A stretch of 63,857 nt of DNA, filler included, from Atractiella rhizophila (Eukaryota): NCBI GenBank assembly GCA_021432655.1. It is 6 parts of 6 records of this genome, joined end to end, with 100 filler letters (N's around TTAATTAATTAA, not from the genome) between each part and the next. Parts side by side here need not be neighbours in the genome. Positions count along the whole stretch, not along the records: positions 1 to 23,265 come from MU271571.1; 5 more parts are not named here. One strand, 5' to 3'. The translations under genes and the position numbers were made by a program. Of the stretch, positions 1,048 through 62,592 are shown piece by piece. The notes under the pieces were generated by a model that had not been told where the DNA came from, searched no databases, and was given only the letters and a program-made list of their open reading frames with translations. The stretch's first letter is position 1; each line of letters begins with the position of its first letter.

Positions 1048-4000
1048 CGAGAGTCATTGACTTACTCCTTCTAGTGTTTTGGCATGGAGCCTTTCTAGCT
1101 GCTGGAAACAGAACATCATTTCGAATATTGGTCACATCTTTTACCCGTACTAATGATGCAAGGTAGCAATCCTAACTCTTACTCTTTACTAGTTCTGAAT
1201 GGTTAAGGGTTTATCCACCACTACTTTCAAAACACTAACTTTCCGTACTTCCACAGTTTAGGAGCTCATTACTCCTCCTCCTCCTATTTCTTATTCCTCT
1301 ACATTCTTGGTCAGTGCGGATTACCTCGGAACATTCCGTTCCTTAACGCTAGCTACGGAACGTTAAATGTCGATTGTCACCCCGCAAAGCTAAATCATCG
1401 CCAAGAGAGAACATGACTGCGTCTGAATGCGAAAATGCTTAGCTTCTACGTACTTTGACTAACGTCGGGTGTAGTTGGGAGGCTTGCTTCATTGGTAACT
1501 TCTCTTCATCGGCTTCTGGACTCAACGTATACATTCAGTTCTTATTTTATCACTCTTGACTTATTTATGGAGCGAAGGTAAGCAGCTCTGCAACTCTATC
1601 CGCTCTCGTGTCTTGTTCGACCGTCGTTGCTGCCTTCGTTCACCGTGTGGAGAGAATAGCCAGAACCTCTTCTTAGATCCTCGGAACGGCAGGTGCGAGT
1701 CTCTCATCTCCCAAGCCCAGCGTTATATATCTAGACTTAACCGGCGTCTTTCGCACGTCTAGTGACGTTTTTGGCACTCATATACTCGTTCTCATTACCT
1801 CCCGGTATGAGTCTTGTTGCAACTACTTCACGCTCTGGCTAGCTTCTGGCTGTTCACACTTGCGCTGTCACTTTCCTCTGCGACGTCGAGGCCATCTAAC
1901 GAATCAACGCGGCTACTCGATCCATTCTGACGGTAGTCAGAGTTTTATAGTTCGCTGTGACCATTAATGAGTGGAGTCATCTCAATATTCCCTGTTCGTA
2001 AGGCTACTCGTTCGACGGCGGACGTGAATCAAATCGTAACGGCAGCGTGTACTTTCTCACTTTAAGCGAACGGTTACATCTTATAGTGTTATGCGGTCTT
2101 TCAGGAGAACTACCGTCTGCTGTACCAGAAAGCTCCTAAAGCCGAGAGGGGTTATGTTTGTGGGTCGTCAAGTCTAGGTTACATCCGCTTTTCCCGTCAG
2201 CTTTTACTTGAGGTCTTAGGGTCCTTTGCTGGCTCCCGAGGTCCAACGGATCTTTCGATAAGTCGTGAGTACGGGGTTCTTTATTTACTCAGAATGAATA
2301 TTAACACCTTACCCCGTGGGAGCTAAACGACAAGTCCTCAAGAGTTGAGTCTTAGGGAACCTTTTAGTTTTGTTGACGAATGGGTCAAAGATTTAGGTTC
2401 CGCCAGTACTACCCCCAAAGGAGGGTTTAGTTGCTGTTACCGACAATATTCTTACTGCTGTTACGGTTGTTGAAAACTTTCGCTCTTGGTCTTAAGCTCT
2501 TAAGGCTTCATAAACTGAGGGGTTTCTAACTACTCGTGCTACTACTGCTACTTCTACCTCTAGGTTCGCCGTTGCCCTTGTCGTAGGCAGGTGGTAGACT
2601 GCTGGTCCCTCCGTCGACATTCCAACAACCCGCACTGCTATTCCATAAACTAATCCATCAAGGTGACTTACTGGCTAATCTTACGTTGTCAAATGTTTAT
2701 GCTACGCGTGGGGTTCACGTTTTCTTTTCCGACCTAGATGGTTCGCGTATCGCATTGGCCACTTCGACAGCAAAGGGACAGTCATGGCCGTATTACACGT
2801 TGTTGCCTACGCATGGGTAGAACCTGCCCTTATCGTGTTGTTTAAAGACGGTTTGAGCTGTCTTGACTCTTCGTCTGCGGAGGGTAGGTTTGTATGCTCT
2901 ACTTTTGCCTCCGTCCTGGCCGTGCGCTGACAGTTCGAGGAAATCCGACATACTAAAGCTCCATACTAGCCATGTATGCTATCGAGGAGGTCAAGGACTC
3001 CATGTCGCAGTCAAGCTCAAATGGCCCTCCGACACCCCCTTCTCACGTATGGCTACTCGTCTGGTCATGGCTAACGGGGTGGATCGCGTTAGTAGACATT
3101 TTACCAGTCGTGAGCGGGGTGGTTAGAGGTACAACTTCATGGACCTAGACGGAACGGCAGTCCCGTGCTACCGACGTTGCTTGTCAGTCGCGGTGATTAT
3201 GAACTGGTTCCACGCTGAATGTCGACTACTGGGAGACCGCGAAGTCTGTGGACATAGTGGACTCGGAAACGTAGCATCAGCATTCTGAGGAGTAGGAAGA
3301 AAAGTAGTTGTATCCTCAGGGATAACCCACTTGAAAAGGGTCGAAGCTACACGCTGTAGGAAATTCGAAATTCAACGAGTGTCTGTGTTGTGATCGCGCT
3401 TCCGTTTTTCCTCTTCCCTCCTTCTGTCGTCGAGTTCGCTCCTGTTCCGAAAACTTCCGACCAAGTCATAGCCTTGCGGTTCGAAACCTCCGTACGCTGA
3501 ACTACGTTTCAAGAAAGCTAGGACAAGTTAGAAAATAGTGGAACGCCACGCGCTATAGGCTCGATCGACCGCACTACCCGCCTTGGCGTCGTGACTGACT
3601 ATTCAACGGTATTGAAGGTCAGCTCGTGCTCTCCCTTGTCAGCCCTTGTGACCGTCTCTACAGTAGGTGTTGTTCGTCGTCCTTTCTACGTATTCTGCCT
3701 CCATCTTCCACGGTTTTGTCCACGTGTACAGACCACCTTGAACTGATACTTCTATAAGTCGCTGCGATTTAAACCAGAGGCTGCCGGTTCTCCTACCCCA
3801 TTTGCCATTCGGAAGAAGGTGGAACCATACTGCTCTACCGTAAGCGTTCACCTTCACCTGTTGTGTTGTAGCACTTTTGGTGACTCACTCATTCATTATC
3901 GTCTTGTACTTACTCGGACACACCAGGTATCTCCATATCTTCACTGTAATCCAAAGGCGTCCACAGGGAGCCTTTCACATCGAATGACTAGGGAAGCCCG

Positions 4001-4360
4001 TACCTTCTGCTATGAAAGGCGTTCTATTAGTCAGTTATGGAAGGGCGACAACTGCCATCCGTCATGAGTGTGAGGTCCATGTGGATGTTGAAGTTTGGGG
4101 TAGTAGGAACGGTAGAACCGTTTCGGAAGCGAAAGCTAAACTACGACTTTTCCTATCCAACCTTTCAAGCGAGGGAGAGCTACGTGGAAACGAAAACTGT
4201 TCACACTTCCGTCGCGGCTACGGTAGTTCGCCCTACACCACGTCGGGAACTACGCAACCCTCCAGTTGGTACACTGATGCTTTTCATCCTTTGAGCGCTA
4301 TCGGGAGCTGATCCTACATGCTTCCTAGCTCACTACGAACTTCTCGTTCTCTAAGACGGC
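1048..4360. other. Mirror-image segment (reversed, not complemented)
   Basis: No plausible protein in any of the six normal frames. Reading the + strand backwards without complementing gives clean exons and GT...AG introns. Confidence 0.95.
1087..3358. CDS. DIP5: Fungal amino acid permease (APC/YAT family, DIP5-like), exons 1-15, readable only in mirror orientation from 3358 down to 1087
   Basis: Backward reading: ATG at 3358, MSHIEAGKSSPNRD...HRALTARQIQ|MIALGGAIGTGLLIGTGGAISRAGP...VDPAFSFALG|WNYLIKYLIVTPNNL...GVKYFGILEFWFS...DLGGNPHHDRLGFRNW...GESRNPRKT...ASPFTVA...AANSDLYIATRTLY...LPYKAP...KTKVVDLSE|. The family is clear from the motifs; the DIP5 subfamily call is by motif resemblance. Confidence 0.9.
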
Positions 4361-4373
4361 TGGCACTCATTAG

Positions 4374-4544
4374 CTCGATTTCCAATTCTCTGCCAATGCC
4401 GAAAAGGATAAATATTGGGCTGAGATTGAGGCCAGGGAGGAGGCTGAGAAAGGTCGGTTTCCTTCTCCTCATGCACTAACATGCTGACCCTCGGACCCAG
4501 GGCCACCAAATCTTCTCACGAAGATCTGGAGAACCCTTGCTTGA
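4374..4544 (+). CDS. Last two exons (4374-4452, 4501-4544) of the DIP5-like permease, in normal orientation
   Basis: TAG acceptor at 4371-4373, then LDFQFSANAEKDKYWAEIEAREEAEK|GPPNLLTKIWRTLA*, a typical permease C-terminus. It is in phase with the mirror exon ending KVVDLSE. Confidence 0.85.
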
Positions 4545-5230
4545 GGCTGTAGGAGATGTTGCCCTTTGTCATGGATGTCTAGTCTGTGTTTAGGACCTGA
4601 ATGTACGCCGCCTATGGTTAAGTTAATGAATATCCTGTTTACATGGCCGTTCCGCATTGAAGTCACCTTTTGCTGGGGGTCTACACTCAGGCTACCATCG
4701 TCCTGGTTTATGTCTTCTCTGACGTAGCTCATCACTGGGCTGTTGGTCGGAACCGGAGAAGCGAAGCACTGTAAGTTTGAGGATTTTGGACTCAGGCACA
4801 AGTTCGACGCTGTCGACCAATACGTTACTTCTACTCTGAGAAGGACGCCATCGTACAGGAACTCATGATGAGTAGGATAACAGATTCCTTACAGACGAAA
4901 GTGCAAGGATGCACTCCTCACTGTCGTCTCGGTCACACTCTCAGTCGGACTTCCACTAGGACAAGTTCTCTGGAATGCCCGACTCGACTATAATAATTAC
5001 CATAGCATAACATCACTTTAGGCTTAGCTTGTGCACTCATGGAAGGCCTGTTCGTTCAGCGCGGCATATTCTTTCGCAGCACGATAGCCTGGCCGTCATA
5101 CGCTGTCTATCCGGGACATTCATGAGGATTAGTCGCGGTATATAGCCTAGCCCGACACAAATCAATCACCAGTCTTTCCTGCTCCCTACTTCAAGATTGA
5201 AGACTTGAATTAAACATCCATCACTTTTAG

Positions 5231-6683
5231 GAAGGATGAGGTTGGCTTGGAGCGCATCCCTGTTGTTGCTGGGTCAGAGTGCAGCTTTATCCAAAGATGG
5301 TGCGACGCCCTTTTCCTATCTTCCTTCCTCAAATCGAAGCTGACTAGGAACTTCTCAACTAATGCGGTAAAAGACATCCTCAGTGTTTTTTCATCAAATG
5401 CTGAAGTCGACCTCGTTGGAGTCGAAGCAAAAATACACGAATTCGTTGGCTACACACTCGTCGTCGTCGCGAACGACAGTCATGCTTTGGTGTCTCTCAC
5501 TCCTTCAGATTATTTACCACTAGAGGCGGTGAGCACTCAATGTTGGGTTCTCCAATGCATTGTGGCTGAACGAGAATCATTAGGTCGGCTACCTCGTTTT
5601 CGGCTCTGGTACCTCTATCGCAGATGGAGAGCTCGTTGCTGCCTCGCCTTCCTCAGGAACCTCGTCCTTTTGGGATATATCTTCAGTGCGATTGGACGCT
5701 TCGAGCTCGACCCTACAAGCACTAACATCACATTCGCTTACACCACTTCCCTCTCTCTCCACCGAGACCACAGCGACCTTTCTCCGTCCCCTTAGTCCTC
5801 TCTCTTCGTCTACTTCCCTTTCAGACTCCCTCTCACTCTCCCATGAGCAATCTATCTTTTGGGCCGTTTCTTTGACTCCTCTTCCACTCATCGTCACCTC
5901 GGCTTTCTACTCCGGGACTTTTAAGCTTGACCTCTCGACGCCATATACCCAGGAGAAGCGGGTAGGTATAAATGTTGGATGGAACCGGCTGAATCGTTTT
6001 ATCGCTGTACACGCCACTCTCATGGCTTCAGCCTTCCTCATTATCTCCCCTCTCGCAATCTTCATAGCTCGATACCGCCGATCCCGTACATCCTGGTTCC
6101 CGACTCACGCAACCATCCAAATTATCACTCTCACTTTCGTAATAACAGCATTCACCGTCATTCGGGTTGGCGCAGGAAGCAAGCATCTATGGTATGGACC
6201 ACACGAGGTTCGTCTCTCCACAAATGGATTTTGAACCTGAATGCTCACCATGTGGCTCAGCGATTGGGGCTCTTCCTCTTCTCACTGGTTCTCCTCCAAG
6301 CAATCCTAGGTTCCATTTCATACAGATTTCTCTCACCCAACACCCGACGGGTCTTCATCCCCAATTGGGTCCATCTCCTTCTGGGCATTACCATCCAAGT
6401 TCTTGCTACCGCTCAAATTCCGCTAGGTTTCAAGCAATGGGAGGACCTGGGTTTGGACGGGAAGCATGTTCCAGTGGCTGTCAAAGTTGTGGTTGGATTG
6501 GTTGTGGCTGGAGAATGGATTGCCTATGCCGTTGGTGTTGTGTGGTGGGATTGGAAGAGCTTCATTGGCTGGCCAAAGAGGGATAGCGCGCTTTTTGAGA
6601 TGCACCAAGCAGAAGGGTACACTACTTATGAGGAGGTAAAGAATCAGAGGAATCCAGCAGCGGAGCAGAAGGGTACGAGCTGA
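5231..6683 (+). CDS. DOMON/CBD9-like plus cytochrome b561-like membrane protein (multi-exon, 5' end uncertain)
   Basis: DOMON-like VGYLVFGSGTSIADGELV...SIFWAVS, followed by TM helices carrying His residues (AVHATLM, WFPTHATIQ, GPHE|RLGL, NWVHLLLG). Confidence 0.7.
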
Positions 6684-7252
6684 CAACCCAACGAAGTATT
6701 GTTCAACCCCCAATTCGCTTTTCATGTTAATTGCGTCAGTCATCCTACGTCTACAACTTTGATCACCTTGCATTTTCACCCTGTTTATTCTTACTATCAT
6801 CGTTCTTTGCCCAGTTTGCTGGCTGTGGAACTGGTCCCGTTCGGGGCACAATGAATGGAACTGTGTATCCTTCATATGGAACTATTTTGTGCGCACTAAT
6901 GATATATATGCGGAGGATTTGTAAACGTTGCCGGAGGACAATCATATTGAAGAGAGAGTAATCAAAAAGTAGAAACAACAGAAAGGAAAGAGCACTTTGT
7001 CACACCAGTATCCTTCCAGCCTGCTATTTGTTGCCTGCAAAGTGCTCGATAGAGAACAATCGTGACTGATCGCCTTCTCAAAGTCACTTATAAGGGACAA
7101 GGAAGAGAGTTGATATCAAGTGGGATCAGCTGAAGCGAACTGTGTGTTCTCTTGTCCGTCCAGCGCTGAAACATGGGAGTGGAGCCTGGTAATTCTGGTC
7201 AGATGCTTCGAGTTGATGAAAGAGCCTTGAAAGCCGACGTCGTACACAGAAA

Positions 7253-8124
7253 TCATTGAAAATGGGCATAGTGCCCAGGAACCTTCATTCTACACTTTTC
7301 GCAATCGACTCTGAATCCCATTGTCATAAGTGGCCTCTTCTTCTTCGTGTTTGTGCCAATGACGCCACCAGTTGCAGGGTGGGTTGGGTCTGAAACCTCG
7401 CTAAGATGTCCTTGCTGCGCTTGTTGAAGGTGCAGACGGTTAAGTTGGGAGGTGGGTACTCCAGACTGCGTGGAAGAAAACGAATCTGTGCTCTCTTGTC
7501 GATGGTGGAGTTGGAGCAGATGTGGGAATGGAGATGGAAGCAGAGGTATATCGGGATCCCTTTTTGGGGAGGTAGAGGGAGATACCTACAAGCACATGTT
7601 TATTGTTAGATCCTAGCCATAACAAGATGCACCAAAGAAGGCTTACTTCCATGTTCACGTCTTCGTCTTTCAACGAAGGCGGACCAGGTATTACTGTCGA
7701 AGCACTAGCCTGAGGGGACATAGTAGACATGTTCCAGTCCCCTTCCTCCATGCCTTCTTGCCGCAGCTGCTCCGGTTGAAACTGAAAGAGTGCTGGAGGT
7801 TCATCCGCGAATTCAGGTTCTGCATCCGATTCAAAAGGTGTATTGTCATACGAAGAGCTCGAACCTTTATGGAGTGAGGTTGAAGACCACTGTGGGGATT
7901 GGGGAAGCGCACCTCCTGAAGAACAGGGGTAGCGGGAGGTTATCATCGGGCTGCCAGTGAAGAGCTGGCTGCTGTGTGCTTTGGGAGAGGCGTCAGGTGG
8001 TCCCTGGAATGGTCTTTTCTAGAGTCAAACGGACGCGTGAAGTTCTGAAGGTCACAAAGGAATGAAGAAGTACCATAAACCTGTCAGTGTCGTCATCATC
8101 GTGGTCGCGTCCCCTTTTGCTCAT
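7253..8124 (-). CDS. Fungal hypothetical protein with C-terminal CxxC...HxxH motif
   Basis: MSKRGRDHDDDD start, Ser/Pro/acidic middle, and C-terminus MGFRVDCEKCRMKVPGHYAHFQ*. Intron signals are present. Confidence 0.6.
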
Positions 8125-8974
8125 ATTTTGACCAAGCGGCACTGGAGTGTGATCGTCTCGTGGTGGAACAAGTTGAACAAGGACAGTGTAGGATGAGTCA
8201 AACTTCGTCCTGACATGAACCAGGAACATCACGATAATCCTCACGGGTCGCACCATTGAAAGGATTGGTGCATCAGCATTGGTATTGCCATGATTATCAG
8301 TTTCAACGCTTATGATACGAGGCCAGCCATTAATTGCATAATCATTACCCACGTGGAATCCTTCGAGTTCATCCAGTTTCAATGTGCTTTGTGCCCACTA
8401 TAACTCCTGATAACACTCTAGGCCTTCATAGACATGGTCGACGTCTGAATTGCGAAGTCGATGAGAAATGGTTTGCCACCAGGGTCAAACACCAAGTTTC
8501 GCTCAGAAGTCGCTGTGCAACGAGTTGTGAATGTGCTTGACAATATCATATATATTGCCTGTCCAAGCAACCAGATTGAGATTGATAAAGGATGGCTCAA
8601 GAAAGAAAGAAAGCACCTACCTGAGACCATAGTCGCTCAATCTGTTCATCACCTGCCATGTTCTGGCCCTCGATCTGCTGAAATACCAGCAGCCCATTGA
8701 CATTTTTCACTCCTTCAAAAGCCCCAAAAACCACGGGGAGGAAATCTGTCGTAAACAGACATAACATGGATTTGGGTGACGAAACAGAAAGACGAACGCC
8801 AAAAGTTTCGATAAATTGCGACCCAGATTGCGACCTCCATCCACAGTTCCTGAACTTCAGTCACATGACTCAATCCCGATAATACAACTCCTAACACCAG
8901 AAGTCAAAGAGCGGCCTCCATCGACGTCTAAGCCACCGAACAAATAACAAAGAAATCATAACTATCGTGTAATC

Positions 8975-10774
8975 ATGGAAGTCGAAGAATTTTATGAACT
9001 TCCCATTTCCTGGAAAGGCACCAAGGTTCCTAGTTTCTTCCCCCTTGATGATCACACGTCGAACAATCTAACATCCATCCCGGCCCGTTTTATATAGTTC
9101 ACCGCTTCTGTGTGCTCGACGGATACAGTGGGAGATCTAAAGGCCATCATATTCTCCCTGACGAACGTATGTACTCTGGTACCTAAAGAAGGCAACTTAC
9201 GCGGTGGGCTAAGGTCCCAATCGAGCGTCAAAAGATTCTAGGTCTCGTACGTTTCTCCTACTGGAAACCATCCTTTTGAAGAAGACGTACCAGGTGAAAG
9301 GTGCTCTACCTTCAGACGAAGTCGCGCTTTCTTCCTCACTAGAAGCGTTCCGCAACTCTTCGAAGACTCTCACTCTCATCGGTACACCAGAAGGGCAAGA
9401 ACTCCGAAAGATTCAAGACGAAGCACCTGACGTATGTCTACATTCCAGCCTTTTCCCCAAGATGTGAAATTAATTGTGGTGGCAGGTCTCAAATGATCTC
9501 GATGTCGATTACAAAGGTCCGGATGGGAATCTAACTACGAGGACAGTGGAACAAAACGAGAGAAGGAATAAGAGAAAATTACACGAGGCGGTGGAGAAGC
9601 TGAGTATCAACATCATGGTCCTACCCACATCCATGAGGAGTAAGATTACTCACAACCCTTACAGGCAGAACCGAGACCTGGCAAGAAATTGCTGGTGTTG
9701 GACCTCGATTACACGATCATGGATGTGAAAGTACGTTCAGCTTCCTGCTCTGCAGGTGTTGGCTGATGAAAAGACAGATGTGGAATGACCCATCGGCCGT
9801 CGCCTTGGGTATGCATTCTTCTTCTCCCAAGTTGCTGACGACGCAGGTCAGCTATAATTCATTGATATTCATTCTAGATTTCGCAAGGCCATACTTGAAA
9901 GAGTTCCTTGAATATGTGTATCCTTACTACGGTCTGCCTTCCTCTCTTTTACTGTATAATGATTCATTAGTTTCAAGAATAGACATCGTCATTTGGAGTC
10001 AAACTTCTTGGCGGTATCTGGAAGGTAAACTGGTGGAGCTAGGAATGATTGGAGGCGGCGAGATGAAGTGCCATATTTGCTTTGGTCCGTTCTTCTCCCT
10101 CACACGCGCCGATTGATGACACTGAAAGCAGTGCTCGATCGGACTGTTCGCTCGTTTGATACTGGCCCATAGCTTATACTGATTTCCAGAGAACAGCCGA
10201 TGTTTTCTGTGTATTCGACGCGTCACAACAAGCCTTTCAAGCACGAGGTGAAAGCTTTAGACATCATTTGGAAGAAGTTTCCCGAACAGTTCGCCTCCTC
10301 TCCCCTCACCATTCCGGTCACAGTATGTTGACGCGTCGTCTAAGCTTCTCCCCTGATCGGACGATACATGTTGATGATCTCGGTTCGTAATTTCCCCCTA
10401 CTGATGCTGTATTGGTCCACAAAGCTCACACGCGTGGAGCAGGTCGTAATTTTGGTACATATTTTTTCTTGCCTCCACCGTGAAAACATTGCCTGACTTT
10501 CGCTCGGAAGCAATGAACCCAAAACAAGGCCTGAAAATATCTGCTTTCAAGAATGCGAGGCAGAATGTGGACGATCGAGAGCTGCTCTACCTCGCCAAGT
10601 TCGTCATTCTCCTGGTTTAACCGTGAACTGTTGGATAGATTGGTTGTCGAACATAGGTACCTGCTACTCATTTCTGGGAACGAGTCATTCAATGGCCTTG
10701 ATCATAATTTATGGAGGGTGCAGCAAGGTGCGCCTTTATTCCTTGAAGCAATTGTGTACTCATTTGTTTTTTGA
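8975..10774 (+). CDS. UBLCP1: Ubiquitin-like domain-containing CTD phosphatase (HAD/NIF family); 3' end approximate
   Basis: N-terminal UBL (ISWKGTK...TVGDLKAIIFSLTN|VPIERQKILGL), then PRPGKKLLVLDLDYT, ARPYLKEFL, IVIWSQTSWRYLEGKLVELG and HEVKALDIIW. Many small exons. Confidence 0.85.
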
Positions 10775-17978: not shown

Positions 17979-20900
17979 ATGGCGTCGATACAAAATAACC
18001 TGGATTCGGTTGCGTCCTCAGCTGCTCCGTCGACAGTTCCCAGTCCTTCCATATCCCGCTCTCCATCCCTCCTACGAAACAGAAATGACAATAGAGATGG
18101 ACTGAGACTCCCAGTGTCTTGTCCCCCGATGGATGTGATAGAAGATAGTAGCAAGAAGGCAAGGAAAATGGTATTAGAGATGCAGGATGGAAGCGCGTTT
18201 GATGGTTTTAGCTTTGGTGCTGAGAGGAGTGTCGCTGGAGAATGTGTATTTCAGACTGGTAAGCTGCTTTTTTGAATACTGGTTCATATGGCTGTTGGTG
18301 AATGAAAACACATTCGGTGAGCAGCTGGATTACTTCAGGAAGGAAGAGCTGCGTTTTGGTTGATTCGAGAGTTGTTAGACATTTCTGTGAACCGACCTCA
18401 TGCTTGGCTTGAAGAAGGCCAGCTACGTTAGACTATGCTTTCAAAACGAACTAAATTTTAAGCTGTCTGTATCGAAGTCGAGAACTGACTATCATCCACC
18501 GTAGGCATGGTCGGATACCCAGAATCGCTCACGGACCCATCTTACAGTGGGCAAATTCTAGTACTCACGTACCCGCTCGTCGGTTCCTACGGGGTCCCTC
18601 CTCAAACAGAAATAGACCTGTCGATTCCTCTCCACTTCGAGAGTGTCAAGATCCATGTTGCCGCTCTTGTAATCGCGACGTACTCCGGCTCAGAAGGCTA
18701 CTACAGCCATCATCTAGCAAATTCGAGTCTAGGGAAATGGCTGGAGCGAGAGGGAGTGCCAGCTGTTTGGGGGGTTGACACTAGGGAGATCGTGAAGCGG
18801 ATAAGGGAGAAGGGTGTCATGCTGGGGCGGGTCATGCTAGAGAAGGCCGAATTAGCCCCAATCCCTGCTGATGAGAGGGGGAGGGCAGCAGTGAATGGAG
18901 TAAAAGGAATCGTTAGGAAATTCAGTCTCGGTTCAAAGGGGTGGAGGAACAATTATCTGGAGGTTCCGTTTGAGGACCCCAATGTCCTCAATCTCGTTAA
19001 ACATGTCTCTGTCGATGCTCCCAAACTTTACACTCCCTCGATGTCGAGCAGAGAAGATGTCACTCCAAAACTAATCAATGGACGACCCCTGAGGATTCTC
19101 GCTATTGACGTGGGAATGAAGTACAACCAGATTCGCTGTTTCCTTCGCCGCGGTGTCGAGCTGAAGGTCGTTCCATGGGATTATGACTTCGTCCGAAAGG
19201 AAGACGAAGATTTTGATGGAATCTTCGTATCAAATGGTCCTGGAGACCCAGAGACCCTCGCTGATTCGACAGTTGCAAGGATTAGGGAGGCGATGTACCC
19301 TCCTCCTGGATCAACTTTCAAAAAACGACCCATGTTCGGAATCTGCCTTGGGCACCAGCTCTTTGGTCTCGCAAGTGGCGCGAAGACCTCGAAGCTTGGG
19401 TATGGAAATCGAGGAATGAACATTCCCTGCACCTCAATGCTATCTGGCCGATGCTACATTACTTCTCAGAACCACGGATATGCGGTTGACGTTTCCACGG
19501 TTGATGGTGAAAAAGGTTGGAGCGAGCTTTTCGTCAATGCTAACGATGGAAGCAACGAAGGGATCATATGTGACGAGGATCCATATTTCTCCGTTCAGTT
19601 CCATCCCGAAGCTACTCCGGGGCCTCAGGACACGGCCTTCCTTTTTGACGTCTTCATCGAGGCTTGCCAGAAATGGGCAGAAGGTGAAAAAGTGAAGATC
19701 AGAGAATTGATGCCCGGAGGAACGTTGGAGGAGAATGAAAAGAAGCATCCGCGAGTGCATGTCAAGAAGGTGTTAGTTCTAGGATCTGGAGGATTGAGCA
19801 TCGGACAAGCAGGAGAATTTGACTATTCTGGAAGTCAGGCTATCAAAGCTCTGAAAGAAGAAGGAATATACACCATCCTCGTCAACCCAAACATCGCGAC
19901 CATTCAGACCTCGAAAGGTCTTGCCGATAAAGTCTACTTCCTCCCAGTAGCTCCAGACTTCGTTAGGAAGATTATTCAGCATGAACGGCCAGATGGAATA
20001 TACGTCACCTTCGGAGGACAGACGGCACTTAACGTTGGTATCAAGATGAAGGACGAGTTTGCTGCCCTTGGTGTTCAAGTCCTCGGCACACCGATTTCGA
20101 CCATTATCACCACCGAGGATCGACAGCTGTTTGCAGATGCCATGGCTGAGATTGGGGAGAAATGCGCAAAATCTTTTTCTGCTACTTCTGTAGAAGAATG
20201 CCTTGAAGCCGCTGAGAAGATTGGCTATCCGGTTATCGCAAGAGCTGCTTTTGCTCTCGGTGGGCTTGGGAGTGGCTTCGCCAATTCTAAGGAAGAGCTG
20301 GATGCTCTGTGCAAAAAAGCTTTTGCGACCAGTCCTCAGGTTTTGGTGGAGAAAAGCATGAAAGGGTGGAAGGAGATTGAATACGAAGTAGTGAGGGATT
20401 GTAGAGATAACTGTATCACGGTGTGTAACATGGAGGTAAGCGTTTGCTTGCTCTTATGGATGCCTATTGATGGTATATGTTTAAATAGAACTTTGATCCT
20501 CTTGGCATTCATACGGGAGATTCCATCGTGGTAGCCCCTTCACAAACGCTATCCGACGCAGATTATCAGATGCTTCGAAATACCGCGGTCAACGTCATTC
20601 GCCATCTTGGAGTGGTCGGAGAGTGCAATATTCAGTACGCTCTCAATCCTGATTCTAAGGAGTACTGCATCATCGAAGTCAACGCTCGTTTGTCCCGATC
20701 CTCTGCCCTCGCCTCGAAGGCAACAGGATATCCTCTGGCTTTCATAGCTGCCAAATTGGGGCTTGGAATACCGCTCAACGATATCAAGAATACTGTCACG
20801 AAACTCACGTCTGCTTGTTTTGAGCCTAGTTTGGACTACATCGTCGTCAAAATCCCCAGGTGGGATTTGAAGAAGTTCAATCGAGTCAGCACACTTCTTA

Positions 20901-23265
20901 GCAGTAGTATGAAGAGTGTGGGGGAGGTGATGGCGATTGGGAGGACGTTTGAAGAGACGATGCAGAAGGCAATTAGGTCGATCGACTTTGCTTATGCTGG
21001 GTTTGGGAAGAATGACGATATTGAAGATATCGAAACAGAACTCGAAAACCCGTCTGACAAGCGACTTTTCGCCATTGCCAACGCTCTACATGCTGGGAGA
21101 TCTGTGGACGATATTTGGTCCATCACCAAGATTGACAAATGGTTCTTACGAAAGCTGGAGAATATTGTCAGAATGGAAAAGGTGCTTTCGTATGTGCCCG
21201 AACTCTTCTGCTCTTACAAATGCTTATGAATCATCAGAACGTATCACATGTCCAACATCTCGAAAGAACTGGTCCGACAGGCGAAACAGATGGGCTTTGC
21301 TGATCGCCAAATTTCTAAATGCACTGGTTCGAACGAAATGGCTGTTCGGCGCTTCCGTCAAGAGGCTAGCATCTATCCCTTCGTCAAACAAATCGATACA
21401 GTGGCAGCTGAGTTTCCAGCGTTCACCAACTATCTCTATATGACCTATAACGCTTCCGAAAACGACGTGGAGTTTGATGACCAAGGCGTGATGGTGTTGG
21501 GTTCTGGTGTTTACCGGATCGGATCTTCTGTCGAATTCGATTGGTGTGCTGTTCGATGCATTCGCACGCTGAGAGCCAAAGGGACGAAGACTATCATGGT
21601 CAACTACAACCCTGAGACTGTCAGCACAGACTACGACGAAGCGGATCGACTCTATTTCGAGAACATTAACCTTGAAACTGTTATGGACATTTACGAGCTG
21701 GAGCATTCTAGCGGTGTTGTCCTTTCCATGGGCGGTCAAACTCCAAATAATATTGCCCTTCCTCTGCATCGTCAGAATGTCAGAATCCTGGGTACCTCTC
21801 CGGAACTGATCGATACTGCTGAGAACCGCTACAAGTTCTCACGAATGCTGGATAAGATCGGGGTGGACCAACCTCTCTGGAAGGAGCTATCTACTATCGA
21901 AGAAGCGCACAAGTTTTGCTCCACTGTCGATTTCCCTGTGCTTGTCAGACCGTCTTATGTTCTCTCTGGTGCCGCCATGAATGTTGTATATTCAGCAGAC
22001 GATCTTTCTGCATACCTTTCGCAAGCTGCTGAGGTATCGCGGGAGCATCCGGTTGTCATTTCGAAGTACATCCAGGAGGCGAAGGAAATTGAGATGGATG
22101 CCGTGGCGAGGAATGGAGAGGTGATCATGCACTACATTTCTGAGCACGTCGAGAACGCTGGTGTCCACTCTGGTGACGCTACACTCATCCATCCTCCTCA
22201 GGACTTAGATCCAGAAACCGTCCGAAGGATTGAATTGGCCACGAAAAAAATAGGGAACGCTCTTAACGTCACTGGCCCTTTCAACATACAGTTCATTGCC
22301 AAGAACAACGAGATCAAGGTCATTGAATGCAACGTTCGAGCCTCGAGGTCTTTTCCTTTCGTCTCGAAGGTCACTGGCATCGATGCCATCGAAATAGCAA
22401 CCAAAGTTATGCTTGGGATGCCCGTGGAGCCTTATCCTCAGCCCCTCATGCCTTCTGACTACGTCGGCATCAAAGTACCTCAGTTCAGCTTCAGTCGTCT
22501 CTCGGGGGCTGATCCCGTGCTTGGGGTCGAAATGGCATCAACTGGGGAAGTGGCATGCTTTGGCAAGGATCGATACGAAGCTTACCTCAAAGCCTTACTC
22601 TCCACAGGCATTTCACTTCCCAAGAAGAACGTTCTCTTTTCTATAGGGTCTTACAAAGAGAAACTAGAGATGCTGCCTTCCGTTCAGAAACTTCATCGTG
22701 CAGGTTTCAATCTCTTTGCTACCGCTGGGACAGCAGACTTCATCCAAGAGCACGGTATTCCGGTCAAATATCTGGAGGTCCTTCCCGAGTCCGAACACTC
22801 CCCGGATCAGAAGTCAGAGTACTCGCTAACGAAACATCTCGCAAATAATCTCATAGATCTCTTCATTAACCTGCCATCGAAGAACCACTTCCGACGACCG
22901 GCTAGTTACATGAGCAAAGGATATCGTTCTCGCCGAATGGCTGTCGATTTTGCGGTCCCTCTCATCACCAATGTCAAGTGCGCCAAACTGTTCGTAGAAG
23001 CCATCATCAGGAAGCCGACATTTGAACTCACCAACAATGACTTTAAGACGTCCTTTGATACAATACTTCTCCCTGGCTTTGTTGGAACACAGATTTTCGT
23101 GGCGAGTCTTACGTCTGGGTCCTCCACGGACGTTGCACGCGCGACACGCGCCGCTATTCACGGCGGCTTTACTTGCGTTCAACTATCGGCTTGGGATGCC
23201 AGCAGCGGTTCGGTTTCAGATCCTTCCTCTTTCGAGATTGCGCAGTCAAACGCGACTGGTCTCGC
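17979..23265 (+). CDS. URA2: Multifunctional pyrimidine synthesis protein (glutaminase + CPSase + start of DHOase-like domain), 3' end lost in gap
   Basis: [42 protein letters not shown], fused to [17 protein letters not shown], a second ATP-grasp, an MGS domain and LPGF...AAIHGGFT. Confidence 0.95.
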
Positions 23266-23365
23266 NNNNNNNNNNNNNNNNNNNNNNNNNNNNNNNNNNN
23301 NNNNNNNNNTTAATTAATTAANNNNNNNNNNNNNNNNNNNNNNNNNNNNNNNNNNNNNNNNNNNN
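23266..23365. other. Artificial contig spacer 44N-TTAATTAATTAA-44N
   Basis: Palindromic 12-mer with stops in all six frames at 23310-23321, inside Ns. Confidence 0.95.
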
Positions 23366-24409: not shown

Positions 24410-25039
24410 NNNNNNNNNNNNNNNNNNNNNNNNNNNNNNNNNNNNNNNNNNNNNNNNNNNNNNNNNNNNNNNNNNNNNNNNNNNNNNNNNNNNNNNNNNN
24501 NNNNNNNNNNNNNNNNNNNNNNNNNNNNNNNNNNNNNNNNNNNNNNNNNNNNNNNNNNNNNNNNNNNNNNNNNNNNNNNNNNNNNNNNNNNNNNNNNNNN
24601 NNNNNNNNNNNNNNNNNNNNNNNNNNNNNNNNNNNNNNNNNNNNNNNNNNNNNNNNNNNNNNNNNNNNNNNNNNNNNNNNNNNNNNNNNNNNNNNNNNNN
24701 NNNNNNNNNNNNNNNNNNNNNNNNNNNNNNNNNNNNNNNNNNNNNNNNNNNNNNNNNNNNNNNNNNNNNNNNNNNNNNNNNNNNNNNNNNNNNNNNNNNN
24801 NNNNNNNNNNNNNNNNNNNNNNNNNNNNNNNNNNNNNNNNNNNNNNNNNNNNNNNNNNNNNNNNNNNNNNNNNNNNNNNNNNNNNNNNNNNNNNNNNNNN
24901 NNNNNNNNNNNNNNNNNNNNNNNNNNNNNNNNNNNNNNNNNNNNNNNNNNNNNNNNNNNNNNNNNNNNNNNNNNNNNNNNNNNNNNNNNNNNNNNNNNNN
25001 NNNNNNNNNNNNNNNNNNNNNNNNNNNNNNNNNNNNNNN
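24410..25039. other. 630-N scaffold gap
   Basis: Run of Ns. Confidence 0.95.
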
Positions 25040-31887: not shown

Positions 31888-34756
31888 TCACTTTTTCCGG
31901 AGGTTGGGATGGATGATGAATTCATTGAGACTGTTACAGCCCATCGTCAGCACACGGAAGAGAAAAGGAAATAAAAACTGACGCTTTGCCGGCAGCTACC
32001 ATGGGAAACACATGTTCGATTCTGACGGTTCGTGCTTCAAAGAGGATCGGTTTGTTGTTATCATACTCCATGAACTCTTTCATCTTGGCAGGCAGGTCTG
32101 CTTTCGATTCACAGCGGATGGCATGAACGCCCATGGCTTTTGCGAGAGCTGATTACATTGTCCCGTCAAACGAACGTCAAGGACAAAGTAGACAGAAAAC
32201 GCACAAACGAAGTCAGGGTTCTTCATCGTGGTATGCGAATACCGATTCTCGTAAAAGAGGTCTTGCCATTGAACGACCATGCCCTATATCTCCCTTAGCT
32301 CTGTCCGCAGGCGAAACGGTTCAGGGAAAACGAACCTGGAACTCGTTATTGATGACAAGGACCTTGATACCAATGTTATACTGTGCAGCGGTGGCGAGTT
32401 CCATCGCTGTCATCGAGAAAGATGCGTCTCCATCGATATCTACAACGACCTTGTTCGGCGCAGCCACCTTGGCTCCGATGCAGGCTGGAAGCCCATAGCC
32501 CATCGTCTTTAACCAAAGTCAGCCACATTCTAGAAATGGGTATACAAAGGACGCACTCCGAGTCCACCGCTGGTGATCATAGTCCTTGGATGTCTCCAAC
32601 GATAATGCTGAGCGGCCCACATCTGATGTTGTCCCACACCAGTAGCGATCAAGCAATTCTCCTTCCCATACTCTTCGCACCAAGCATCGAGTTCCTCGAT
32701 GACCTCTTGAGGCTTCATGAACTCTCCTTGCTCTGGCTTCGAAGGCTCATAATACCAAGGGAAATCTTTCTTCCATTGCGCGATCTTGTTGAACCACTCT
32801 TCTCGAGCTGGAGGAGTGTTCGATAGCACGCGGAGAAGATAGCCGAGGTTATGAGAGAGGTCTCCCTCAATGGGAACCGTGGCATTCACCACCTTATTGA
32901 TGTTTTTCGGTTGAATTTCAAAGTGGATGATACCACCTCTTCGCTCCAGCGCAGCAGCGCGAGCAGCAGGTGCGAATTCTACCCGCACAATGATTAGGTC
33001 AGTCTGGAGAAGATGATCTGGGAAGAGAGAGGAGAACACACTATCAAGTGTTCCGGTGACCCTGTCATCGAATCTTGCTCCCAGACAAATGATCAAATCA
33101 GCTTCTTGCATCGCCATATTGGCGTATCCACTTCCATGCATTCCGAGCATATGAAGAGATTTCTTCTCATCGAGTTCATCGAATCCTCCCAATCCATGCA
33201 GACTGGTCGTCACAGGCGCATTCAATTTATCGCTGAGTTCCTTAAGGAGCGCCGGTCCACCAGGTGACCACATGATGCCATGACCAGCATAGATGACTGG
33301 ACGTTTAGCAACGGCACAGAGCGCCGCGGCTCGAGTGATGAGTTGTGGATCGGGCGGCGGGAAGGAGGAGGAGGAAGGGGAGAGAGGATTCGAGCGACCG
33401 AACGGGTTCGACGGGAGCGAGTCGTTGATCATTTCTGGCGCTGTGAACCTCGAAGGGATGGGAACTTTGAGGGTTCCGGCTGTGACGTCTTTGGGGAGGT
33501 CAACGAGGACAGGTCCCGGTCTTCCAGAGGTTGCGATGTGAAAAGCTTCGTTGATTCTCCGTGGAAGCTCAGCGATGTCTTTCACCATGACGTTCCACTT
33601 GGTGCATGCTCTCGAGATTCCCACCACGTCTGCCTCCTGGAACGCATCGCTCCCAATGCTGCTCGTCGCAACCTGTCCACAGAAAACAACGAGCGGCGTG
33701 CCATCCGACAACGCGTCCTGCATCGCCGTGACCACATTCGTCGCTCCAGGTCCAGAAGTGACGAGCACAACTCCAGGCTTTCCACTTGCTCTAGCGTATC
33801 CCTCAGCCATATGACCGGCTCCCTGTTCATGACGCGGGAGGACAAAGTCAAAGTGTTTCGAGTTGTAGATCGCATCGAAAACCGGGAGGATGGCTCCACC
33901 AGGGTAGCCGAAGATCTGCTTGACGTCGTGTCTACGCATCATCTCGTGGAAGATCTGGCCACCCGATAGCCCGACGAAGGAATGATCCAGAGGTTCGGCG
34001 CGTTGGTAGGCACCATGAAGAGGCAGCTCAAGCTCTGACGAAGGAGTAGTCGGGGTCGGTCCTGGTGGAACAGTTGAAGGGAACTTCTGGAAGTTGGGAG
34101 ATGGAATAGGGCGCCTGGTATCAAAGATTAGTTAAGGCCGTAAAATTGAAATGTATGAGTGGAATCCTCGACATCGATCAAACAAGCTGAACATCATGCA
34201 AAGCAAATAATGTCCTGTTTCCAAATACGCTGAGTCTACTCTCTTGCAAAATTGGAGCTCATAGGCTGCGGATCACTCATTGCGGTGCTGTCAAACCCAA
34301 ATCTAAAGGAAGAGCAGCGTAACATCTCAATAAATACTCTTTGAACTTGTCTAGAAAGCAGCTACGCAGCATTCGTGCGGTTACATAGCTCACAGGTGAG
34401 AACGCAGAATGTTTGAGCGATTTAAATTAGAGAGCGGTTCCCTCTAAATCATGGCATATAGGGTTGAAAAAAGTGGAGTTATCCTGCAGCCTTTCCTCAT
34501 GCATACAGGCCCATCACATCAGAAGAAAGGAAAGTAGCATGACCCAAGTCTCAACTTTGTGCAGTCAAAACAAAACGTACTCTACTTCGACCGCATCCTT
34601 CCTGCCAGTACCACTGAGCTGGCGCCCACTAAGGCCGCTGGCGACCTTGAGAGGTCTCGAACTGGAGCTAGAGCCAGTGATAACGCCACCGTTCCTCTTC
34701 GCTGGGATGGAAGACGAGAGTCTGCGAATCGCGCCTGCTGAAGCCTTGAACGACAT
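31888..34756 (-). CDS. ILV2: Acetolactate synthase (AHAS) catalytic subunit, mitochondrial
   Basis: FGYPGGAILP, PRHEQGAGHMAEGYAR, VTSGPGATN, GVGQHQMW, SGGLG|TMGYGLP and TPP motif GDASFSMT...INN. Arg/Ser-rich presequence. Confidence 0.95.
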
Positions 34757-54062: not shown

Positions 54063-54162
54063 NNNNNNNNNNNNNNNNNNNNNNNNNNNNNNNNNNNNNN
54101 NNNNNNTTAATTAATTAANNNNNNNNNNNNNNNNNNNNNNNNNNNNNNNNNNNNNNNNNNNN
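54063..54162. other. Artificial contig spacer 44N-TTAATTAATTAA-44N
   Basis: 12-mer at 54107-54118 within Ns. Confidence 0.95.
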
Positions 54163-58063: not shown

Positions 58064-58163
58064 NNNNNNNNNNNNNNNNNNNNNNNNNNNNNNNNNNNNN
58101 NNNNNNNTTAATTAATTAANNNNNNNNNNNNNNNNNNNNNNNNNNNNNNNNNNNNNNNNNNNN
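58064..58163. other. Artificial contig spacer 44N-TTAATTAATTAA-44N
   Basis: 12-mer at 58108-58119. Confidence 0.95.
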
Positions 58164-59877: not shown

Positions 59878-59977
59878 NNNNNNNNNNNNNNNNNNNNNNN
59901 NNNNNNNNNNNNNNNNNNNNNTTAATTAATTAANNNNNNNNNNNNNNNNNNNNNNNNNNNNNNNNNNNNNNNNNNNN
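59878..59977. other. Artificial contig spacer 44N-TTAATTAATTAA-44N
   Basis: 12-mer at 59922-59933. Confidence 0.95.
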
Positions 59978-62492: not shown

Positions 62493-62592
62493 NNNNNNNN
62501 NNNNNNNNNNNNNNNNNNNNNNNNNNNNNNNNNNNNTTAATTAATTAANNNNNNNNNNNNNNNNNNNNNNNNNNNNNNNNNNNNNNNNNNNN
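62493..62592. other. Artificial contig spacer 44N-TTAATTAATTAA-44N
   Basis: 12-mer at 62537-62548. Confidence 0.95.

Follow-up and report, generated by a model that had tools for sequence, protein, structure and literature searches.

We analysed a window of 63,857 nucleotides (nt) from Atractiella rhizophila (assembly GCA_021432655.1), which consists of six parts with a 100-letter filler between each part and the next, and whose first part, positions 1-23,265, comes from MU271571.1. Near the left end of this scaffold lies an amino acid permease gene, most of which is written in mirror image. The mirror-written block spans 3310 nt (1048-4357) and belongs to neither strand in the usual sense, as judged from tblastn searches, polarity statistics and the loose ends of public contigs. 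On its left it directly abuts a residual scaffold gap of 25 N (1023-1047, without strand), which is preceded by a second copy (1-1022) of the sequence that follows the block. Here, the mirror reading means that the letters are taken from right to left, without complementing.

The block reads as a permease from right to left

The window was searched by tblastn with 12 E. coli K-12 open reading frames (ORFs) from PF00324-located loci in NC_000913.3 (374-526 bits), at a cut-off of E<=10. The targets were the window as written, on both strands, and the letter-reversed window. As written, none of the six frames of the block is open over more than a short stretch, and none shows similarity to the 12 E. 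coli permease ORFs (best E 0.24). The 45 matches to the as-written window are scattered, with no cluster in the block. The letter-reversed window gave 73 matches, the best 22 of which all fall within 3171 down to 1429, in colinear and descending order, and the top match is with the LysP ORF (E 8.6e-24). A previous sequence-only reading of this stretch had called the block junk in six frames as written and an amino acid permease when reversed, and both statements passed this homology check.

The direction of the block was also assessed from its composition, using a strand-symmetric 5-mer model trained on the rest of the window and cross-validated in 6-kilobase (kb) chunks. The summed polarity score over 1048-4360 is -247, as compared to +307 ± 47 (minimum +217) for 3313-nt blocks elsewhere. 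Reversal swaps each word with its reversed word, and genomes are symmetric only under reverse complementation; reciprocal word ratios are therefore expected in a reversed block. The TA/AT ratio is 1.41 in the block versus 0.68 and 0.60 outside, and the (CA+TG)/(AC+GT) ratio is 0.79 versus 1.27 and 1.22. The dinucleotide ratios of the block are thus an almost exact reciprocal of the outside values, as reversal predicts. The mirror reading is real, far beyond chance.

No second mirrored stretch was found in the window at a resolution of 300 nt, which would miss blocks well below that length. Outside the block, no 300-nt window scores below -16.9, and 3.7% of the 591 background windows fall below zero. 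Likewise, the 5-mer score revealed no clear mirrored neighbour at the other 11 runs of N: the 600-nt sums beside them all exceed zero, and just two of the 300-nt sums are negative (-4.4 and -1.6), on the left side of the runs that start at 58064 and 58120. A blastn search of the window with the mirrored block (E 1e-5) detected no copy of it in normal orientation.

Gene model of the permease

The exon model was built by inspection and dynamic programming. In the mirror reading, exon 1 (3358-3222) begins with an ATG at 3358 and is followed by exon 2 (3172-3142), exon 3 (3094-3052) and exon 4 (2995-2979), a micro-exon of 17 nt that is predicted from the frame and LysP similarity only. Exons 5 (2928-2816), 6 (2765-2711) and 7 (2664-2383) come next, the last of these with its donor at 2382-2377. 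The mirror-read part then continues through exons 8 (2328-2297), 9 (2248-2073), 10 (2020-1974), 11 (1918-1810), 12 (1763-1570), 13 (1518-1430) and 14 (1371-1202) to exon 15 (1154-1087), which ends on a GT donor. Since intron 15 begins at this donor and runs into the edge of the block at 1048, the gene is incomplete inside the block.

The remainder of the gene lies on the + strand to the right of the block. Intron 15 is composed of mirror-read 1086-1048 followed by 4358-4373, its last 16 nt on the + strand, which together form a GT..AG intron of 55 nt. Frame continuity then places exon 16 (79 nt) at 4374-4452, and after intron 16 (4453-4500, 48 nt, GT..AG), exon 17 (4501-4544) ends with the stop codon TGA at 4542-4544. 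Intron 15 closes, and the frame stays free of stops, only if the mirror reading of 1048-4357 is joined directly to the sequence that starts at 4358. The restored coding sequence comprises 17 exons and 1686 nt, or 561 codons, with no internal stop and with consistent splice phases. Its 16 introns are 46-58 nt long; 15 are GT-AG and one is GC-AG (2072-2021 in the mirror reading), the latter predicted from the frame and LysP similarity only. With its start codon, unbroken frame, matching phases and stop codon, the gene is apparently intact rather than a pseudogene.

The start at 3358, the 15 mirror-read exons, and the consistent phases without stops that the sequence-only reading had described were all reproduced in this model. 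Its view of a complete gene within the block needs amending: 15 exons do lie inside, but exons 16 and 17 lie outside. Of its worked example, an exon and donor within 2341-2580, the exon and the donor stand in the mirror reading, but the exon end is at 2383 and the donor at 2382-2377.

Two automatic models were discarded in favour of the one built by inspection. One with strict donor and branch filters ended at 266 residues, and a scored dynamic-programming model yielded 13 exons, with two introns read through and the last exon misplaced.

Public sequence runs, coded here X1-X4 and all used as contigs, were aligned to 1048-9000. X1 and X2 look like DNA runs of a single organism, each containing 0.50 of the sampled words (everything but the block would give 0.58), X3 behaves as spliced RNA, and further runs share fewer words with the window. 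One X3 contig joins 4452 to 4501 (aligned as 4450 to 4499, skipping 48 letters, and brought to GT..AG by shifting the cut by +2), and X4 contains an 86-letter contig over exon 16 (4372-4453). The part of the gene outside the block is therefore transcribed, with splicing as in the model. This transcript support concerns intron 16; the other 15 introns are predicted only.

An X3 contig also jumps backwards, from 4647 to 4372 across a single additional letter, which may be an assembly quirk of the X3 contigs.

Upstream of the start codon, the mirror-written block continues for about 1 kb (3359-4357) as the 5' flank of the gene, which forms the far end of the reversed extension. Its polarity is negative throughout, except in the 300-nt window 3801-4100 (+9.1). 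An ORF scan and tblastn with the E. coli ORFs, without an external search, revealed no convincing ORF or permease similarity in this flank, which is presumably a promoter or intergenic region.

Product of the restored gene

In composition-adjusted blastp, the restored product aligns with the LysP ORF over residues 36-524 (LysP residues 6-483 of 489) with 35% identity and an E value of 4e-97. The alignment is colinear and unbroken at the exon junctions. Eight further E. coli members of PF00324 match the product with E values from 1e-44 to 6e-67, so that nine E. coli PF00324-located proteins show near full-length, colinear similarity to it. Judged by these similarities, the hidden gene is predicted to encode an ordinary amino acid permease of the AA_permease/APC type, with 561 residues. 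Like its relatives, the product presumably acts as a proton-coupled amino acid importer.

Right border of the block and true order of the DNA

The right junction of the block, at 4357/4358, is the border that was tested against the public contigs. Certain contigs of X1 and X2 agree with the window only to the right of 4357/4358; their loose left ends, of up to 178-179 letters, fit no part of the aligned stretch as written. A 30-letter consensus of these loose ends equals the mirror reading of 1078-1049 at 28 of 30 positions, and a 21-letter consensus equals the mirror reading of 1069-1049 at 20 of 21. The loose end of a second allele corresponds to the mirror reading of 1077-1048 with five mismatches in 30. 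With up to seven substitutions allowed, the two 30-mers match neither strand of the window as written, nor the complement-only reading; the best matches of the 21-mer in these three are scattered and have 5-6 mismatches.

These contigs show the real order of the DNA: the reversed block comes first and 4358 onward follows, so that base 1048 adjoins base 4358. The seeming fit of base 4357 in the contigs is a chance identity of this one base with base 1048, both being C, so that the block extends from 1048 to 4357. Of the limits given by the sequence-only reading, 1048-4360, the left border after the 25 N stands, and the right border moves to 4357. The sequence-only reading would have given up its artefact explanation if reads followed the block as written across the junction; at 4357/4358, the junction examined, the contigs contradict the as-written sequence.

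The depth of X1-X4 is zero in the 12 bins covering 1048-4239 and cover begins in bin 4240-4505, a pattern that by itself proves nothing. Window position 1, the first base of the scaffold, aligns with 4361, which puts the right border only 3 nt away from the homologue of the scaffold start. With a gap on the left and the homologue of the scaffold start on the right, both borders therefore coincide with landmarks of the assembly.

A second copy at the start of the scaffold

The segment to the left of the gap (copy A1, 1-1022, + strand) is a diverged, colinear copy of the segment to the right of the block (copy A2, 4361-5426, + strand), which is continuous with the rest of the scaffold. The two copies are 86.7% identical over 1080 columns in blastn and show a mean column identity of 92% in MAFFT. 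Copy A1 contains its own versions of exon 16 (14-92), intron 16 (93-140) and exon 17 with the stop codon (141-184), all on the + strand. The three differences between the copies in exon 17 all fall at third codon positions and are synonymous. The polarity score of A1 is normal (+80).

The A1 variants at 4592, 4609 and 4617 are found in a minor contig of X1 and X2 (depth 106 and 70.7, respectively), and the major form has depths of 233 and 158.5. In this minor contig, 233 different letters stand in place of the middle part of the copy, at about 4685-4956 of the window. In X1, the allele-specific contigs (106 and 233) together approximate the depth of the shared flank (314), which gives a weak hint that A1 represents the other haplotype. 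Segment 1-1022 is probably the other haplotype, misplaced before the gap to leave a false duplication at the scaffold start. Contig depth is a weak guide here, however, and the segment may instead be a true tandem duplicate.

Other features of the window

The 100-letter fillers between the six parts are five identical joins of the form N44-TTAATTAATTAA-N44, at 23266-23365, 54063-54162, 58064-58163, 59878-59977 and 62493-62592. The preprint bioRxiv 10.1101/2023.02.08.527609 describes six-frame-stop separators with the TTAATTAATTAA core that concatenate contigs. The joins in the window are artificial linkers of this type; the sequence is thus in part a pasted pseudomolecule, and the order across the joins may be arbitrary. 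A gap of 630 N at 24410-25039 represents a third kind of gap, beside the 25 N and the linkers.

Two + strand ORFs, at 18489-20531 and 21230-23263, contain GATase, CPSase small-chain and CPSase large-chain domains. Their domain content marks 18489-23317 as a CAD/URA2-like gene, fused in the eukaryotic manner. Since its second ORF extends directly into the linker at 23266, a join falls inside this gene.

Nearer to the permease, the + strand ORF 5931-6680 contains a eukaryotic cytochrome b561 domain. Joints of X3 contigs, of both the GT..AG and the CT..AC kind, extend through 5298-8620; the neighbours of the permease are therefore spliced genes on both strands. On the - strand, ORF 32533-34131 contains thiamine-pyrophosphate enzyme domains and resembles acetolactate synthase. 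The permease introns, of about 50 nt and with signals of fungal appearance, and the eukaryote-type GATase-CPSase and cytochrome b561 ORFs are in keeping with a fungal source; small word shares in root metatranscriptomes carry no weight in this respect.

Origin of the mirrored block

We consider block 1048-4357 to be a data-handling artefact, with a probability of about 97%: the real DNA to the left of 4358 would be the same string in the opposite order, uncomplemented. The reversed block is not a real biological feature. The sequence-only reading had proposed a software reversal without complementing, at a gap, that hides a real gene, and the borders, the loose ends and the closed intron 15 all agree with it.

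Both the type of program and the processing step behind the reversal are inferred. Two contigs would have begun at the same homologous point, and one of them would have been laid before the gap. Most likely, the other contig, starting near 4358, was extended leftwards by 3.3 kb into the scaffold gap. The added bases would have been stored in outward order and pasted without being turned, leaving the residual gap of 25 N at the far side.

Several points weigh against this explanation. The junction evidence derives from contigs rather than raw reads, and it concerns the right border only. Between the consensus loose ends and the mirrored block there are 1-2 mismatches in 21-30 letters; X1 and X2 may therefore represent a different isolate instead of the assembly's own reads, or there may be errors in the extension. 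The placement of the product in its family draws on E. coli members only. Finally, no published account of this assembler error was found among the best matches of a literature search.

The reversal may also have occurred after assembly, through record editing, format conversion or preparation of the window, rather than in a gap filler or extender. The five artificial six-frame-stop linkers read as heavy, custom post-processing of the record, in line with an artefact in general and also with such a later step. However, borders at a residual gap and at the homologue of the scaffold start fit an extension better than a random edit, and we regard a later origin as unlikely.

Alternatively, the block could have been complemented in place, so that the gene would lie on the minus strand and 4357 would truly be adjacent to 4358. 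Homology alone cannot separate this possibility from plain reversal, as complementing without reversing and reversing without complementing yield two strings that are reverse complements of each other. The loose ends do separate them: they match the reverse-only reading, and in the complement-only reading the 30-mers are without a match even at seven substitutions, while the best match of the 21-mer has five mismatches and lies at 254-274, outside the block. Moreover, a gene complemented in place would lose its last two exons, which follow base 1048 once it is joined to 4358. We rejected this model on the loose ends and on the continuity of exons 16 and 17, and consider it highly improbable.

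Plain reversal as written could, in principle, also be physical, with the isolate carrying a polarity-flipped permease gene body of 3.3 kb that replaces the normal one or exists alongside it. Such a copy would need a templated process of a kind that has never been described, and to our knowledge no polymerase or recombinase makes a reversed, non-complemented copy. Nothing speaks positively for it, beyond the fact that the 1-2 mismatches in the contigs allow them to come from another isolate. By contrast, both of the alleles that X1 and X2 show at 4357/4358 run on to the left in un-mirrored order, and the summed allele depths in X1, being close to the flank depth, hint weakly that a third form is absent. 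The borders of the block are a gap and a contig start, and a silent copy would not have retained 561 codons and 16 pairs of splice sites. The physical copy is therefore extremely improbable and close to refuted.

Although membrane proteins are compositionally biased, a chance or low-complexity hydrophobic resemblance has a vanishingly small probability, given the composition-adjusted LysP alignment (E 4e-97, 35% identity), the failure of the same queries on the as-written control (best E 0.24) and the canonical splice sites at all 16 introns.

As biology, the mirrored block has no meaning; the gene behind it is an ordinary amino acid permease. The value of an artefactual reversal lies in assembly quality control, correction of the record and re-annotation. 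An apparently intact, real gene is invisible in the record to six-frame searches and gene callers, and its exons 16 and 17 will wrongly be annotated as a gene fragment. Elsewhere in the assembly, other extensions may have been reversed by the same pipeline. The TA/AT ratio, the ratio of CA+TG to AC+GT and the 5-mer polarity flag reversed blocks without a reference and could be applied to whole assemblies. Given the probable haplotype duplicate and the linkers, one of which falls within the CAD-like gene, the gene content and gene order of this window should be used with care.

Comparison with known systems

The restored product shares with E. coli LysP, and with AA_permease (PF00324) of the APC superfamily, an alignment that is colinear and near full-length. 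It differs from the bacterial permeases in having extensions of about 40 residues at the N- and C-termini (residues 1-35 and 525-561 are unaligned) and in its 16 short introns. The fungal YAT family, of the Gap1, Can1 and Lyp1 type and with extended cytosolic N- and C-termini, is presumably its closest group, the references compared here being bacterial.

The five joins share their core with the linker described in bioRxiv 10.1101/2023.02.08.527609, but have another length and other flanks, and the gap that the mirrored block abuts consists of 25 N without any core.

The duplicated segment at the scaffold start resembles the familiar situation of uncollapsed haplotypes, or false duplications, in assemblies of heterozygous or dikaryotic genomes, in that the copies are colinear and about 87-92% identical, and both forms occur in the same DNA runs.

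As in a biological inversion, the order of the mirrored segment is opposite to that of its flanks. However, an inversion produces the reverse complement, which a six-frame search detects, and the permease would then appear on the minus strand; the block is therefore not an inversion. We rejected inversion on this ground, the as-written window having no permease similarity on either strand.

A further parallel is with orientation errors in sequence records, where entries have been deposited reverse-complemented or merely reversed. Like a merely reversed entry, the block is unrecognized by a six-frame search and perfect once turned. Here, on the other hand, the reversed sequence is not a whole entry but an internal 3.3-kb piece of a scaffold, which lies beside a gap and cuts a gene inside an intron.

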